A stretch of 64,000 nucleotides of DNA from assembly GCF_054482595.1 (NCBI RefSeq), contig NZ_CM137008.1; one strand, 5' to 3'. The notes beneath the pieces are model-generated. The model saw only the letters and a list, made by a program, of their open reading frames with translations. It ran no database searches and was not told the origin of the DNA. Within the stretch, counting starts at the first letter, position 1; the number at the start of each line of letters is the position of its first letter. The translations under genes and the position numbers were made by a program. Of the stretch, positions 18,905 to 32,719 are shown one piece after another.

Positions 18905-21052
18905 ATGAAAAAAGTCGTCACGGTTTGCCCCTATTGCGCATCAGGTTGCAAAATCAACCTGGTCGTCGATAACGGCAAAATCGTCCGGGCGGAGGCAGCG
19001 CAGGGGAAAACCAACCAGGGTACCCTGTGTCTGAAGGGTTATTATGGCTGGGATTTCATTAACGATACCCAGATCCTGACCCCGCGCCTGAAAACCCCCA
19101 TGATCCGTCGCCAGCGTGGCGGCAAACTCGAACCTGTTTCCTGGGATGAGGCACTGAATTACGTTGCCGAGCGCCTGAGCGCCATCAAAGAGAAGTACGG
19201 TCCGGATGCCATCCAGACGACCGGCTCCTCGCGTGGTACGGGTAACGAAACCAACTATGTAATGCAAAAATTTGCGCGCGCCGTTATTGGTACCAATAAC
19301 GTTGACTGCTGCGCTCGTGTCTGACACGGCCCATCGGTTGCAGGTCTGCACCAATCGGTCGGTAATGGCGCAATGAGCAATGCTATTAACGAAATTGATA
19401 ATACCGATTTAGTGTTCGTTTTCGGGTACAACCCGGCGGATTCCCACCCAATCGTGGCGAATCACGTAATTAACGCTAAACGTAACGGGGCGAAAATTAT
19501 CGTCTGCGATCCGCGCAAAATTGAAACCGCGCGCATTGCTGACATGCACATTGCACTGAAAAACGGCTCGAACATCGCGCTGTTGAATGCGATGGGCCAT
19601 GTCATTATTGAAGAAAATCTGTACGACAAAGCGTTCGTCGCTTCACGTACAGAAGGCTTTGAAGAGTATCGTAAAATCGTTGAAGGCTACACGCCGGAGT
19701 CGGTTGAAGATATCACCGGCGTCAGCGCCAGCGAGATTCGTCAGGCGGCACGGATGTATGCCCAGGCGAAAAGCGCCGCCATCCTGTGGGGCATGGGTGT
19801 AACCCAGTTCTACCAGGGCGTGGAAACCGTGCGTTCTCTGACCAGCCTCGCGATGCTGACCGGTAACCTCGGTAAGCCGCATGCGGGTGTAAACCCGGTT
19901 CGTGGTCAGAACAACGTGCAGGGTGCCTGCGATATGGGCGCGCTGCCGGATACGTATCCGGGATACCAGTACGTGAAAGATCCGGCTAACCGCGAGAAAT
20001 TCGCCAAAGCCTGGGGTGTGGAAAGCCTGCCAGCGCATACCGGCTATCGCATCAGCGAGCTGCCGCACCGCGCAGCGCATGGCGAAGTGCGTGCCGCGTA
20101 CATTATGGGCGAAGATCCGCTGCAAACTGACGCGGAGCTGTCGGCAGTACGTAAAGCCTTTGAAGATCTGGAACTGGTTATCGTTCAGGACATCTTTATG
20201 ACCAAAACCGCGTCGGCGGCGGATGTTATTTTACCGTCAACGTCGTGGGGCGAGCATGAAGGCGTGTTTACTGCGGCTGACCGTGGCTTCCAGCGTTTCT
20301 TCAAAGCAGTTGAACCGAAATGGGATCTGAAAACGGACTGGCAAATCATCAGTGAAATCGCCACCCGTATGGGTTATCCGATGCACTACAACAACACCCA
20401 GGAGATCTGGGATGAGTTGCGTCATCTGTGCCCGGATTTCTACGGTGCGACTTACGAGAAAATGGGCGAACTGGGCTTCATTCAGTGGCCTTGCCGCGAT
20501 ACTTCAGATGCCGATCAGGGGACTTCTTATCTGTTTAAAGAGAAGTTTGATACCCCGAACGGTCTGGCGCAGTTCTTCACCTGCGACTGGGTAGCGCCAA
20601 TCGACAAACTCACCGACGAGTACCCGATGGTACTGTCAACGGTGCGTGAAGTTGGTCACTACTCTTGCCGTTCGATGACCGGTAACTGTGCGGCACTGGC
20701 GGCGCTGGCGGATGAACCTGGCTACGCACAAATCAATACCGAAGACGCCAAACGTCTGGGTATTGAAGATGAGGCATTGGTTTGGGTGCACTCGCGTAAA
20801 GGCAAAATTATCACCCGTGCGCAGGTCAGCGATCGTCCGAACAAAGGGGCGATTTACATGACCTACCAGTGGTGGATTGGTGCCTGTAACGAGCTGGTTA
20901 CCGAAAACTTAAGCCCGATTACGAAAACGCCGGAATACAAATACTGCGCCGTGCGCGTCGAGCCGATCGCCGATCAGCGCGCCGCCGAGCAGTACGTGAT
21001 TGACGAGTACAACAAGTTGAAAACTCGCCTGCGCGAAGCGGCACTGGCGTAA
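18905..21052 (+). CDS. fdhF: Formate dehydrogenase H, selenocysteine-containing (UGA at codon 140 recoded as Sec)
   Basis: Two in-frame ORFs (18905-19324, 19373-21052) separated only by TGA 19322-19324 in the conserved CCARV-U-HGPSVAG context; N-terminal Fe-S motif CPYCASGCK; 715 aa total. Confidence 0.9.
19322..19366 (+). other. Selenocysteine UGA codon plus SECIS stem-loop
   Basis: tgacacggcccatcggttgcaggtctgcaccaatcggtcggtaatggcg: hairpin immediately 3' of the in-frame UGA, matching the fdhF SECIS as I recall it. Confidence 0.8.
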
Positions 21053-21065
21053 TACAGTCCTTTCT

Positions 21066-21094
21066 ACAGCCTCCTTTCGGAGGCTGTTTTTTTA
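21066..21094 (+). terminator. Rho-independent terminator of fdhF
   Basis: cagcctcc-tttc-ggaggctg stem-loop followed by a T7 run. Confidence 0.8.
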
Positions 21095-21145
21095 TCCATT
21101 CGAACTCTTTATACTGGTTACTCCCTACCCAATCGTATTATCAAA

Positions 21146-21835
21146 ATGAAAAAAATTATCGCATTGATGTTGTTTTTGACATTCTTTGCCCACGCCAACG
21201 ACTCCGAGCCTGGCAGCCAGTATTTAAAGGCAGCAGAGGCCGGGGACCGACGCGCACAATATTTTCTTGCCGACAGCTGGTTTAGCTCCGGCGATTTGAG
21301 CAAAGCCGAATATTGGGCACAGAAAGCCGCCGACAGCGGTGATGCTGATGCCTGCGCGCTGTTGGCGCAGATCAAAATCACCAATCCGGTCAGTCTGGAC
21401 TATCCACAAGCAAAAGTTCTTGCAGAGAAAGCGGCGCAAGCGGGCAGTAAAGAAGGTGAAGTAACGCTGGCGCATATTCTGGTAAATACTCAAGCGGGCA
21501 AACCGGATTATCCAAAGGCGATTTCGCTGTTAGAAAACGCCTCGGAAGATCTGGAGAACGACTCTGCCGTCGATGCCCAAATGCTGCTTGGTTTGATTTA
21601 CGCCAACGGCGTGGGCATTAAGGCCGACGATGACAAGGCAACCTGGTATTTCAAACGCAGCTCTGCAATTTCCCGAACCGGTTATTCCGAGTACTGGGCG
21701 GGAATGATGTTCTTAAACGGTGAAGAAGGTTTTATCGAGAAGAATAAACAAAAGGCGCTGCACTGGTTGAACCTGAGCTGTATGGAAGGGTTTGATACCG
21801 GGTGTGAAGAGTTTGAAAAATTAACCAACGGTTAA
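21146..21835 (+). CDS. yjcO: Sel1-repeat (TPR-like) periplasmic protein
   Basis: 229 aa; signal peptide; repeated Sel1-like A-x-YxLA/G motifs; K-12 position between fdhF and gltP. Confidence 0.8.
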   Translation: MKKIIALMLFLTFFAHANDSEPGSQYLKAAEAGDRRAQYFLADSWFSSGDLSKAEYWAQKAADSGDADACALLAQIKITNPVSLDYPQAKVLAEKAAQAGSKEGEVTLAHILVNTQAGKPDYPKAISLLENASEDLENDSAVDAQMLLGLIYANGVGIKADDDKATWYFKRSSAISRTGYSEYWAGMMFLNGEEGFIEKNKQKALHWLNLSCMEGFDTGCEEFEKLTNG

Positions 21836-21838
21836 GGT

Positions 21839-22105
21839 AGGCCTGATAAGACGCGTTAAGCGTCGCATCAGGCGTTGATGTCGGATGCGGCGTAAACGCC
21901 TTATCCGACCTACAAAATCACGCTAAATCAGGCTATTGCGCTGTCTGGCGTAGGCCTGATAAGACGCGGCAAGCGTCGCATCAGGCGTTGATGTCGGATG
22001 CGGCGTAAACGCCTTATCCGACCTACAAAATCACGCTAAATCAGGCTATTGCGCTGTCTGGCGTAGGCCTGATAAGACGCACCAGCGTCGCATCAGGCAT
22101 CCACA
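21839..22105. repeat. BIME/REP array: 113-bp unit tandemly repeated (2 full copies plus a partial third)
   Basis: Unit aggcctgataagacgcg...cgtcgcatcaggcgttgatgtcggatgcggcgtaaacgccttatccgacc... recurs with starts at 21841, 21954 and 22067; contains canonical REP palindromes. Confidence 0.85.
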
Positions 22106-22137
22106 CATTGCCGGGGGATAACCCCGGCAATCTTCAA

Positions 22138-23451
22138 TTATTGATCCGCAGTTTTATCAAATTTGCCCAGCACTTCACGCTCATAAGCCAGCGCCTTTTT
22201 GCGGTCAAATTTGTGTTCCCACTTGGCAATCACCAGCACCGCCAGCGCATTACCCACCACGTTCAGCGCAGTACGCGCCATGTCGAGGATACGGTCAACA
22301 CCGGCAATAAACGCCAGACCTTCCAGCGGAATACCTACGCTACCCAGCGTTGCCAGCAACACCACAAACGACACGCCAGGCACGCCAGCAATCCCTTTCG
22401 AGGTCACCATCAGCGTCAGCACCAGAATGATTTCCTGCCAGATGGACAGGTCAATGCCATACAGCTGAGCGATGAAAATAGCGGCAATACTTTGGTACAG
22501 CGTCGAACCATCAAGGTTAAAAGAGTAACCGGTTGGCACCACGAAGCTGGTGATCGACGCCGGTGCTCCGTAGGCTTCCATCTTCTCAATAATTCGCGGC
22601 AGTACGCTTTCAGAGCTGGCAGTGGAGTACGCCAGAATCAGCTCATCTTTCAGAATACGAATCAGGATCCAGACGCTTAACCCGCACAGGTGCGCCACAA
22701 TGCCCAGCACTACCAGCGCGAAGAACAGAATGGCGAAATGCACCAGCAGCACCAGTTTCGCCAGTGGCCACAGAGAAGAGAAACCAAAGTTAGCCACCGT
22801 CACCGCAATCAGCGCAAACACACCCACCGGCGCATAACGCATCACCATGTGAGTCACTTTAAACATGGTTTCAGAGATGGAGCGGAACACGGTCACCAGC
22901 GGTTCACGATGCGTCGCGGGCAGGGAAGAAAGCCCCAGACCAAACAGCACCGAGAAGAAGATGATCGGCAGCATTTCGCCTTTCGCCATCGACGCCACAA
23001 TGTTCGTCGGCACCAGCGACAAAATCGTGCCCATAATGCCGTGGGAACTGCTTTGTACCGCTTCCGTAGTGCTCTGATATTTCGAGATATCGACGGTCGC
23101 CAGCTGCGACATATCCACCCCGGCACCGGGCTGGAAGACGTTCGCCAGAGTGATCCCCAAAATGATGGCGACGGTGGTGATCACCTCGAAGTAGATAATG
23201 GTTTTCGCGCCAATACGCCCGAGCTGTTTGGCATCACCAACACCCGCGATACCCACCACCAGCGTGGAGATCACAATCGGCACAACAATCATTTTGATCA
23301 AATGGATGAAGATATCACCCGCCGGAGAGAGCAAATTGACGACCAGCCAGTCGCGGCTGTCGCTATGGTAGTGCAGGTAGCTTCCCAGGAGAATGCCCAG
23401 CACCATAGCAAACAGAATCTGCCAGGCCAGGCTGAATTTTATATTTTTCAT
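22138..23451 (-). CDS. gltP: Glutamate/aspartate:proton symporter (DAACS family)
   Basis: 437 aa multi-TM ORF; K-12 synteny. Confidence 0.9.
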   Translation of the reverse strand: MKNIKFSLAWQILFAMVLGILLGSYLHYHSDSRDWLVVNLLSPAGDIFIHLIKMIVVPIVISTLVVGIAGVGDAKQLGRIGAKTIIYFEVITTVAIILGITLANVFQPGAGVDMSQLATVDISKYQSTTEAVQSSSHGIMGTILSLVPTNIVASMAKGEMLPIIFFSVLFGLGLSSLPATHREPLVTVFRSISETMFKVTHMVMRYAPVGVFALIAVTVANFGFSSLWPLAKLVLLVHFAILFFALVVLGIVAHLCGLSVWILIRILKDELILAYSTASSESVLPRIIEKMEAYGAPASITSFVVPTGYSFNLDGSTLYQSIAAIFIAQLYGIDLSIWQEIILVLTLMVTSKGIAGVPGVSFVVLLATLGSVGIPLEGLAFIAGVDRILDMARTALNVVGNALAVLVIAKWEHKFDRKKALAYEREVLGKFDKTADQ

Positions 23452-23792
23452 CAGAATAACTTCCTCAATGGAGCGCCGTTCCCCGTTCAGAAACGCGAGA
23501 ACGTGACATACTGCCAGGGCATGAATTGTGTTGCGTTGGTTTGTAGATTTTTTTAACGCTTATGATCAGTATCATTTGCGCGGTATGTTGCGCAACCCTT
23601 TAACAACAGAGCTTTTCGCTGCATTAATGCATAATAACGCGAGTTTATGGCAGGATTAATGAATAACCATTTGTTATGGAAAGATTTTTATTTGTTTAAT
23701 CTGCAATAATACTGATTAGTGATTATTTTTGACATATGTTCATTCGATTATTTTTTATGCAGCTCAATAACATAATCTTCATCACCAGATGA

Positions 23793-32526: not shown

Positions 32527-32630
32527 TTGCCGGATGCGAGTCGGTAACGGTTTGTAGGCCTGATAAGACGCGACAGCGTCGCATCAGGCATTGATTGCCG
32601 GATGCGGCGTATAACGCCTTATCCGGCCTA
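32527..32630. repeat. REP/BIME elements downstream of acs
   Basis: gccggatgcg..., aggcctgataagacgcg...cgtcgcatcaggc and gccggatgcggcgtataacgccttatccggcc palindromic units. Confidence 0.75.
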
Positions 32631-32719
32631 CATTCGGCAAGGGTTACCCGAGCGTTAACCTTCTCCCATAAGGGAGCGGGAATTAAAACAATCCCTACAT
32701 TACCTCTGGAGAATCTGTG

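Follow-up and report, generated by a model that had tools for sequence, protein, structure and literature searches.

The closest described systems to the repeat array reported here are the BIME-2 clusters of Escherichia coli. As defined in earlier work, a BIME-2 combines y and z2 REPs with a short S linker, occurs in tandem and varies in copy number from strain to strain (PMC3333891), and its linkers differ from locus to locus while being well conserved inside one locus (Ton-Hoang et al. 2012, PMC3333891). The gltP-yjcO BIME of MG1655 was itself named in Ton-Hoang et al. 2012, in which a partial copy served as oligonucleotide B319 (PMC3333891). TnpA(REP) cuts this oligonucleotide in vitro at four positions in the linkers, and the consensus places the cut between C and T (PMC3333891). 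Another array, REP325, was studied as the source of naRNA4 in the original work on that RNA (PMC4550694). According to a recent preprint, REP325 acts locally, as a partially Rho-dependent attenuator and a protector of upstream mRNA, and its Rho dependence is confined to the full-length array (preprint 10.64898/2026.03.23.713779). In the same preprint, REPs located between convergent genes were proposed to be bidirectional (10.64898/2026.03.23.713779).

The array examined here is found in the window, which is the whole analysed stretch of 64,000 nucleotides, between the convergent genes yjcO (+) and gltP (-). Both were named by the RefSeq annotation of E. coli strain XH990, which is 100% identical over 1,301 bp. 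It is an ordinary BIME-2-type REP array at a locus present in the literature, and no new kind of element. A tandem BIME unit between these two genes had been predicted from the letters of the DNA, and the unit found consists of a Y REP, a short linker, an inverted Z2 REP and a spacer, with the predicted flanking genes confirmed. The whole array lies between the two stop codons and takes up most of the 302-nt gap. Tandem Repeats Finder reports 21837-22098 as a single array with 96% matches, no indels and a score of 489, and returns the same period (113) and copy number (2.3) as the original prediction; the internal periodicity is thereby present. The predicted coordinates, 21839-22105, gave the right place, and their ends were off by 2 and 7 bases. 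The two full 113-bp units, 21837-21949 and 21950-22062, show 98% identity in a repeat search, and the differences anticipated at about two positions near the 5' end are TT (21856-21857) versus GC (21969-21970), the only ones between the units, in the loop of the first hairpin. The diverged partial third copy also stands, as a 36-nt hairpin at 22063-22098 with a different loop. There are exactly two copies of the 36-bp spacer in the 64-kb window, and 100 shuffles gave none. All features are listed in the table.

Features of the yjcO-gltP array and its flanks (positions in the window)
Feature	Position	Strand	Evidence and remarks
yjcO CDS (Sel1-repeat protein), left flank	21146..21835	+	ORF; RefSeq annotation in 100%-identical genome; stop TAA at 21833-21835
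Y-type REP no. 1, GTAG foot at 5' end, loop GTTAA	21837..21873	+	Sequence, pattern match; DNA hairpin -12.7 kcal/mol, z -6.45
Rfam RF02564 (naRNA4) match, Z2-linker-Y module of unit 1, gltP sense	21840..21910	-	75.2 bits
Head-to-head linker GTTGAT ('S' position), copy 1	21874..21879	.	Sequence comparison
Z2-type REP no. 1, CTAC foot at 3' end on + strand	21880..21913	-	Hairpin -9.7 kcal/mol, z -4.04
Tail-to-tail spacer no. 1, AAAATCACGCTAAATCAGGCTATTGCGCTGTCTGGC, 36 bp, unstructured	21914..21949	.	z +0.12; IHF-like core at 21926-21938
Y-type REP no. 2, loop GGCAA	21950..21986	+	Sequence, pattern match
Rfam RF02564 (naRNA4) match, module of unit 2	21953..22023	-	77.1 bits
Head-to-head linker GTTGAT, copy 2	21987..21992	.	
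Z2-type REP no. 2	21993..22026	-	Repeat search, comparison
Tail-to-tail spacer no. 2, identical to no. 1	22027..22062	.	Exact match
Terminal Y-type REP no. 3 ('anchor' REP), loop ACCA	22063..22098	+	-12.8 kcal/mol, z -6.36
Non-REP hairpin, perfect 10-bp stem ATTGCCGGGG/CCCCGGCAAT	22107..22131	.	-12.7 kcal/mol, z -5.59; 6 nt past gltP stop
gltP CDS (glutamate/aspartate:proton symporter), right flank	22138..23451	-	ORF; annotation

Each unit is made up of a 37-nt Y REP (GTAGGCCTGATAAGACGC-loop-GCGTCGCATCAGGC), the 6-bp GTTGAT, a 34-nt inverted Z2 REP (GTCGGATGCGGCGTAAACGCCTTATCCGACCTAC) and the 36-bp spacer, with the heads of the REPs meeting across the 6-bp linker and their tails meeting across the spacer. 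All REPs form DNA hairpins of -9.7 to -12.8 kcal/mol, with z values of -4.0 to -6.5 against shuffles. RNA folding of the interval in the two orientations gave z values of -9.85 and -10.31 against shuffles, and the centroid structure gives each REP its own stem-loop. The anchor REP is the sole REP remaining in strains without any 113-bp unit, and exactly that REP is retained in the 77-nt allele (L002).

The yjcO-gltP BIME is a BIME-2-type cluster of five REPs, in which a 113-bp module present twice lies upstream of a resident terminal Y REP; this assignment rests on the y/z2 alternation, the S linker and the tandem variable copies, and not on the tail-to-tail s/l/r motif. As in the REP/PU class, whose imperfect palindromes of 20-40 nt can form stem-loops, the five units measure 34-37 nt, and on the + strand every Y REP has the GTAG foot on its 5' side and every Z2 REP has CTAC on its 3' side. 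They are also multicopy: with 28-nt words the query had a median of 11 matching places in an E. coli genome, and further REPs were found elsewhere in the window and at other K-12 loci. The order Y<, Z2>, Y<, Z2>, Y< displays the alternation of BIME-2. The Z REP is identical at 32 of 34 positions to the Z2 REP of REP325 (labelled in PMC4550694), and the two changes together form one compensating base pair. The 6-bp head-to-head linker is short, as the S linker is, and in the form (A/G)TTGAT it recurs in all sampled alleles save that of E. whittamii (ATTATTGAT), as well as in a separate module at 32554-32631, the related form ATTGAT(T) being found in other alleles and in that module. Tandem arrangement and strain-variable copy number are likewise observed, with 2.3 copies here and 0-9 spacers per genome among 5,426 genomes.

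Several other classes were considered for the interval. A CRISPR array was rejected, as the 'spacers' do not differ from one another; the repeats are also two different REP hairpins. A coding gene fails as a reading, the ORF list containing no ORF of at least 40 aa inside 21836-22107. No mobile element with its own ends or genes was seen at the array, and the hairpins keep the REP consensus and the GTAG foot. No REP annotation is given in the RefSeq MG1655 record, which lists only coding sequences in this stretch.

The comparison of copy number across E. coli genomes that had been proposed was run as a spacer search in 5,426 complete E. coli genomes. The spacer was found in 2,808 of them, at 1-9 places each (median 4; 9,700 places in total), and was not detectable in about 48%. 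Among 60 evenly spaced spacer-positive genomes, the counts were 1 (6 genomes), 2 (10), 3 (4), 4 (31), 5 (2), 6 (2) and 7 (5). MG1655-like genomes have 5 spacer places, which equal the 5 spacers at yjcO-gltP, and therefore the spacer is locus-specific in that background.

Allele lengths, sampled from a ranked list of the 5,426 complete genomes, range from 72 to 828 nt between the two genes. The shortest allele, 72 nt, is without an intact REP (L006), and the 77-nt allele, with the terminal Y REP alone, makes up about 40% of the ranked 60-row sample. A 147-nt allele has a truncated Y, one Z2 and a variant spacer (L004); the 177-nt allele of O157:H7 (L003) has a spacer with an internal 12-bp deletion; and 190 nt corresponds to 1.3 copies (L005). 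The window, with 302 nt and 2.3 copies, is followed by C600 and another 'MG1655' assembly (530 nt, 4.3 copies), the MG1655 reference (641 nt, 5.3 copies) and three longer alleles of 827-828 nt with about 7 copies (L007, L008 and L010). Two series can be recognised among these lengths, 77 + n x 113 (77, 190, 302, 530, 641) and 147 + n x 113 (147, 827/828), and the array changes mainly by whole units. The copy-number polymorphism predicted earlier for yjcO-gltP is now quantified. In the O157 allele, the spacer was reduced from 36 to 24 nt (AAAATCACGCTAGCGCTGTCTGAC) through the loss of AATCAGGCTATT, between two short GCTA/GCG repeats (L003 intergenic 79-102). This allele is stable in its lineage, since all four sampled O157-type rows share a 1176-bp span.

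In a scan for the exact pattern, which covered one genome for each prokaryotic species, the spacer was detected in two other genomes, and both hits lie between yjcO and gltP. At this locus, 5.0 copies of 113 bp were counted in Escherichia sp. E1V33 and 1.9 copies of a variant with a 117-bp period in E. whittamii. The presence of the array at the same locus in other Escherichia indicates that it is older than E. coli and fixed at the locus. A separate observation concerns NZ_JAAIYA010000177.1, a contig of 240 bp with coverage 0.53 from a Pyxidicoccus caerfyrddinensis assembly, which consists entirely of the K-12-type gltP-yjcO BIME (Z2 centre GGCATAAACG) and is almost certainly E. coli contamination of the myxobacterial assembly.

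The K-12 assemblies themselves conflict at this locus, with 5.3 copies in the reference and 4.3 copies in C600 and in CP010439 ('K-12 MG1655'). In addition, the first Z2 of the MG1655 reference lacks a CG (GGTAAACG) that is present in the other units and in other K-12 assemblies (GGCGTAAACG). Recurrent breseq calls against MG1655 at gltP/yjcO include +CG at 4,296,380 and a polymorphic C->T at 4,296,060 (PMC4330922); both lie within the array, and the +CG call agrees with the Z2 difference. The K-12 discrepancy reflects either a copy-number change among laboratory stocks or an error in the reference or the assemblies. With such conflicts in view, it could be asked whether the 2.3 copies of the window are an artefact in which a longer array was collapsed, as short-read assemblies can collapse tandem 113-bp repeats and K-12 assemblies do differ by 4.3 versus 5.3 copies. 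This reading deserves almost no credence because the 2.3-copy allele recurs in independent complete genomes: a span of 1301-1303 bp is found in five further complete genomes from different sources in the 60-row sample, and exactly 2 spacers are present in about 17% of the 60 sampled spacer-positive genomes.

Larger rearrangements have also been associated with the locus. In an amoxicillin-evolved E. coli line, 164-kb amplified and 86-kb duplicated segments around ampC have boundaries at gltP/yjcO (PMC12625342), which is consistent with the array as a recombination endpoint. In E. coli BL21(RP) (NZ_CP084683.1, locus positions about 1450-1510), yjcO is missing and the locus adjoins a truncated DUF2207 pseudogene. 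A fragment of about 54 bp (GGTAATGACTCCAACTTATTGATAG...), which we take to be the terminal end of IS1, is fused there directly to a BIME spacer at the Z2/spacer junction. This arrangement suggests that IS1 was associated with a rearrangement of which one end lies in the array.

With regard to how copy number changes, unequal recombination or replication slippage between the near-identical (98%) units is the most likely route. Cleavage and rejoining by TnpA(REP)/RAYT may be an alternative or additional one, a contribution that is possible since the enzyme cuts the gltP-yjcO BIME in vitro. The spacer contains exactly four CT dinucleotides on the + strand and one on the - strand, and the four on the + strand presumably represent the four TnpA(REP) sites. 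About half of the genomes are without a full unit, and therefore the tandem amplification is dispensable; it is probably close to neutral.

These data also raise the reading that the array has no locus-specific function at all, having arisen as a neutral or selfish side product of the spread of REPs through TnpA(REP)/RAYT and of repeat recombination, and being tolerated between gene ends. The absence of the full unit from about half of E. coli genomes and a copy number of 0 to 9 fit such an origin, as do the drift of the spacer between lineages, including the 12-bp internal deletion in O157, the cleavage of the gltP-yjcO BIME by TnpA(REP) in vitro (PMC3333891) and the one-unit difference among K-12 laboratory derivatives. 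However, the array was already at the locus before E. whittamii and a further Escherichia lineage split off and has been retained there, the REP hairpins are intact while loops and spacers vary, and effects of REP arrays on neighbour genes have been measured elsewhere (preprint 10.64898/2026.03.23.713779). Absence of function is thus a real possibility that we nevertheless regard as somewhat improbable, and a neutral reading is compatible with a weak tuning role.

The preferred reading places the main activity of the array at the RNA level, where both convergent transcripts would end in stable REP stem-loops. Such stem-loops would block 3'-to-5' exonucleases and partly attenuate read-through with the assistance of Rho, and the number of hairpins would set the strength of the effect. 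By analogy with REP325, a bidirectional 3'-UTR hairpin barrier, combining mRNA protection with partial termination, is most likely the role of the array. At the yjcO end, the first REP starts 1 nt past the stop codon, from which it is separated by one base, and its stem begins 5 nt past. As reported by Liang 2015 in the form cited in PMC12306157, ribosomes stall and translation falls when the distance between a stop codon and a REP is no more than 15 nt. With its first REP only 1 nt after the stop, yjcO falls under the rule as given there, and the closeness of this REP may down-regulate yjcO translation. Counter-evidence to a general stabilising effect is that mRNA half-lives are not systematically longer for genes associated with REPs (preprint 10.64898/2026.03.23.713779). 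Moreover, the lack of units in about 48% of genomes (no spacer) and in about 40% of the ranked sample (one Y REP) argues against a strong requirement.

A scan of 21000-23700 detected no intrinsic terminator, defined as a G+C-rich hairpin leading straight into a T-run, at 21836-22137 on either strand. Since the array has none, any termination by it would be partial and Rho-assisted. The non-REP hairpin at 22107-22131 is followed by no T-run on either strand and was not reported by the terminator scan. Every sampled allele has it, but its loop and the top of its stem vary (GGGGGATAACCCC, GGGTGGATATCCCC, GGGTGGATATAATCCCCC and others); it may be gltP's own 3'-end structure. On the other side of yjcO, a hairpin with a 9-bp stem followed by TTTTTTT was observed at 21066-21087, just past the ORF at 19373-21052; it is intrinsic-terminator-like, unlike the REP array. 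That ORF precedes yjcO, a position held by fdhF in other genomes, and an Rfam SECIS_2 match above threshold (87.1 bits) lies at 19317-19371, at an in-frame break just upstream of it. Further away, at 39866-40006, the Rfam model of the sRNA sraL matches above threshold (153.3 bits).

Rfam also bears on a different reading of the transcripts, in which the array would be a cluster of genes whose products, naRNA4-like non-coding RNAs associated with the nucleoid, condense the chromosome together with HU. Both full modules exceed the gathering score of RF02564, 59.5 bits, on the gltP-sense strand, in a model built on REP325 modules; a third, partial match at the array remains under the threshold with 50.4 bits. 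However, RF02564 is in effect a Z2-linker-Y profile that any BIME-2 module matches. At 32554-32631 there is a single BIME-2-type module (Y REP, linker ATTGATT, Z2 REP), and its - strand matches RF02564 at 32557-32628 with 76.9 bits. Since this unrelated module matches as well, the model recognises the Z2-linker-Y double hairpin and not a specific function. The module is also missing at yjcO-gltP in many strains. Finally, REP325/naRNA4 was reported to be without measurable nucleoid compaction, and REP-REP contacts were not seen, in a preprint that shares its senior author with the original work (10.64898/2026.03.23.713779). The nucleoid role with HU was accordingly set aside as very improbable, the match in sequence being real and the function being contradicted by that preprint.

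Binding of IHF was likewise considered, as the array might resemble the IHF-binding BIME-1 (RIP/RIB). In each 36-bp spacer, AATCAGGCTATTG fits WATCARNNNNTTR exactly, and an A-tract precedes it by about one turn of the helix. However, this consensus is loose and matches the window 13 times versus 4.4 expected. In almost every spacer of the 7-copy arrays the core reads CATCAG, and in the O157 allele it has been deleted. Given these changes in other lineages, the IHF site was rejected as a conserved feature. IHF binding is documented for the L linker of the single-copy BIME-1 with Y and Z1 (PMC3333891), while at yjcO-gltP the head-to-head linker is only 6 bp long and the element is tandem. The main text of an IHF ChIP-seq paper (PMC3333857) makes no mention of BIMEs. 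Membership in BIME-1/RIP/RIB was excluded on the same features, namely the 6-bp head-to-head linker, the tandem arrangement and an IHF-like core that is located in the tail-to-tail spacer and is unconserved, and an IHF-binding role is highly unlikely. Among the functions that the original prediction had listed for such arrays, IHF binding therefore falls away as a BIME-1 property resting here on an unconserved spacer core, and terminator activity survives at most in the partial, Rho-assisted kind, the intrinsic type being absent.

At the DNA level, gyrase could plausibly act on the Y REPs, as in other BIME-2 arrays. A stronger version would make this the main role, with the array acting as a transcription-independent, strong gyrase site that absorbs positive supercoiling between convergent yjcO and gltP. 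Gyrase cleavage sites are significantly enriched in BIME-2, Y REPs are cleaved more frequently than Z2 REPs, and blocking transcription increases the signal (PMC6379681); the array offers three Y REPs between convergent genes. However, only a subset of BIME-2 is cleaved, most table rows having zero sites, the similarly sized REP325 has 0-2 sites, and yjcO-gltP is without a row in the BIME/cleavage table (PMC6379681). From the offsets of aceA-aceK, lamB-malM and REP325, the locus was put at about 4.3005-4.3022 Mb in the Topo-seq genome. Table DS3 (PMC6379681) has no row between 4,290,015 and 4,316,815, and the portion of the file covered by a coordinate search has no start at 4,301,5xx-4,302,0xx. 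Absence of the locus from this table leaves a DNA-level role only plausible, and as the main role we consider it unlikely.

A further proposal takes the number of units, 0 to 9, as a heritable and lineage-specific dial on gltP/yjcO, exerted through graded hairpin protection and the Rho attenuation of long arrays, in which the 36-bp locus-specific spacer, whose K-12-type alleles have an IHF-like core, may contribute a further layer of protein binding absent from other BIME-2 arrays. This proposal is speculative, and we would give it little weight. By comparison, we are confident in the explanation as a whole, that of a BIME-2-type array which changes copy number by recombination or slippage, acts through 3'-UTR hairpins, offers plausible gyrase targets and is amplified in a near-neutral manner.

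The discovery value is small: REP and BIME elements have been known since the 1980s and 1990s, the locus was an experimental substrate in 2012 and copy variation is a published property. The natural length polymorphism at yjcO-gltP, 72-828 nt between conserved genes, could be a typing marker. The array is also a known trap for read mapping and assembly, as exemplified by the 'gltP/yjcO +CG' call and by K-12 assemblies one unit apart. Additionally, its alleles are a ready-made series for testing the proposal that REP arrays tune the 3' ends of neighbour genes.

Compared with the gltP-yjcO BIME of MG1655, the array in the window has the same locus, flanking genes and 113-bp unit and an identical 36-bp spacer. 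The differences lie in the copy number, 5.3 in the MG1655 reference (641-nt intergenic) versus 2.3 (302 nt) here, in a few positions of the Y loops and Z2 centres, and in the terminal Y loop, GGCAA in MG1655 versus ACCA. Among three other K-12 arrays, tldD-yhdP has a period of 91 bp with 7 bp head-to-head and 15-16 bp tail-to-tail, REP325 (yjdM-yjdN) has a period of 100 bp with 13 and 17 bp, and aceA-aceK has 14 bp in both places; the corresponding values for yjcO-gltP are 113, 6 and 36 bp. The alternation of Y and Z is common to all four arrays, and Z is the Z2 form in the three tandem arrays, tldD-yhdP, REP325 and yjcO-gltP. The 36-bp spacer is two to three times as long as the tail-to-tail linkers of the three others (14-17 bp). 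Since its head-to-head linker is the shortest of the four arrays compared and its tail-to-tail spacer exceeds the others by a wide margin, the yjcO-gltP array might be filed as an 'atypical BIME' in the old nomenclature.

REP325, the naRNA1-6 array (PMC4550694), shares with yjcO-gltP the tandem Y/Z2 hairpins, identical spacers between modules and the same Rfam model. However, its linker and spacer sequences are unrelated, its Z2 foot is GCCGG...CCGGC versus GTCGG...CCGAC in yjcO-gltP, a compensated pair, and it lies between tandem genes of one operon whereas the yjcO-gltP array lies between convergent genes. The tldD-yhdP BIME-2 has tandem alternating Y/Z2 REPs as well, with the identical Z2 34-mer. 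It is the strongest gyrase-cleaved BIME-2 in Topo-seq, with 35 ciprofloxacin-induced sites, while cleavage at yjcO-gltP is undocumented there (PMC6379681). BIME-1 (RIP/RIB) resembles yjcO-gltP in having inverted REP pairs at gene 3' ends, but it joins Y to Z1 across a long conserved L linker with an IHF site and is single-copy, whereas yjcO-gltP joins Y to Z2 across 6 bp and is repeated in tandem.
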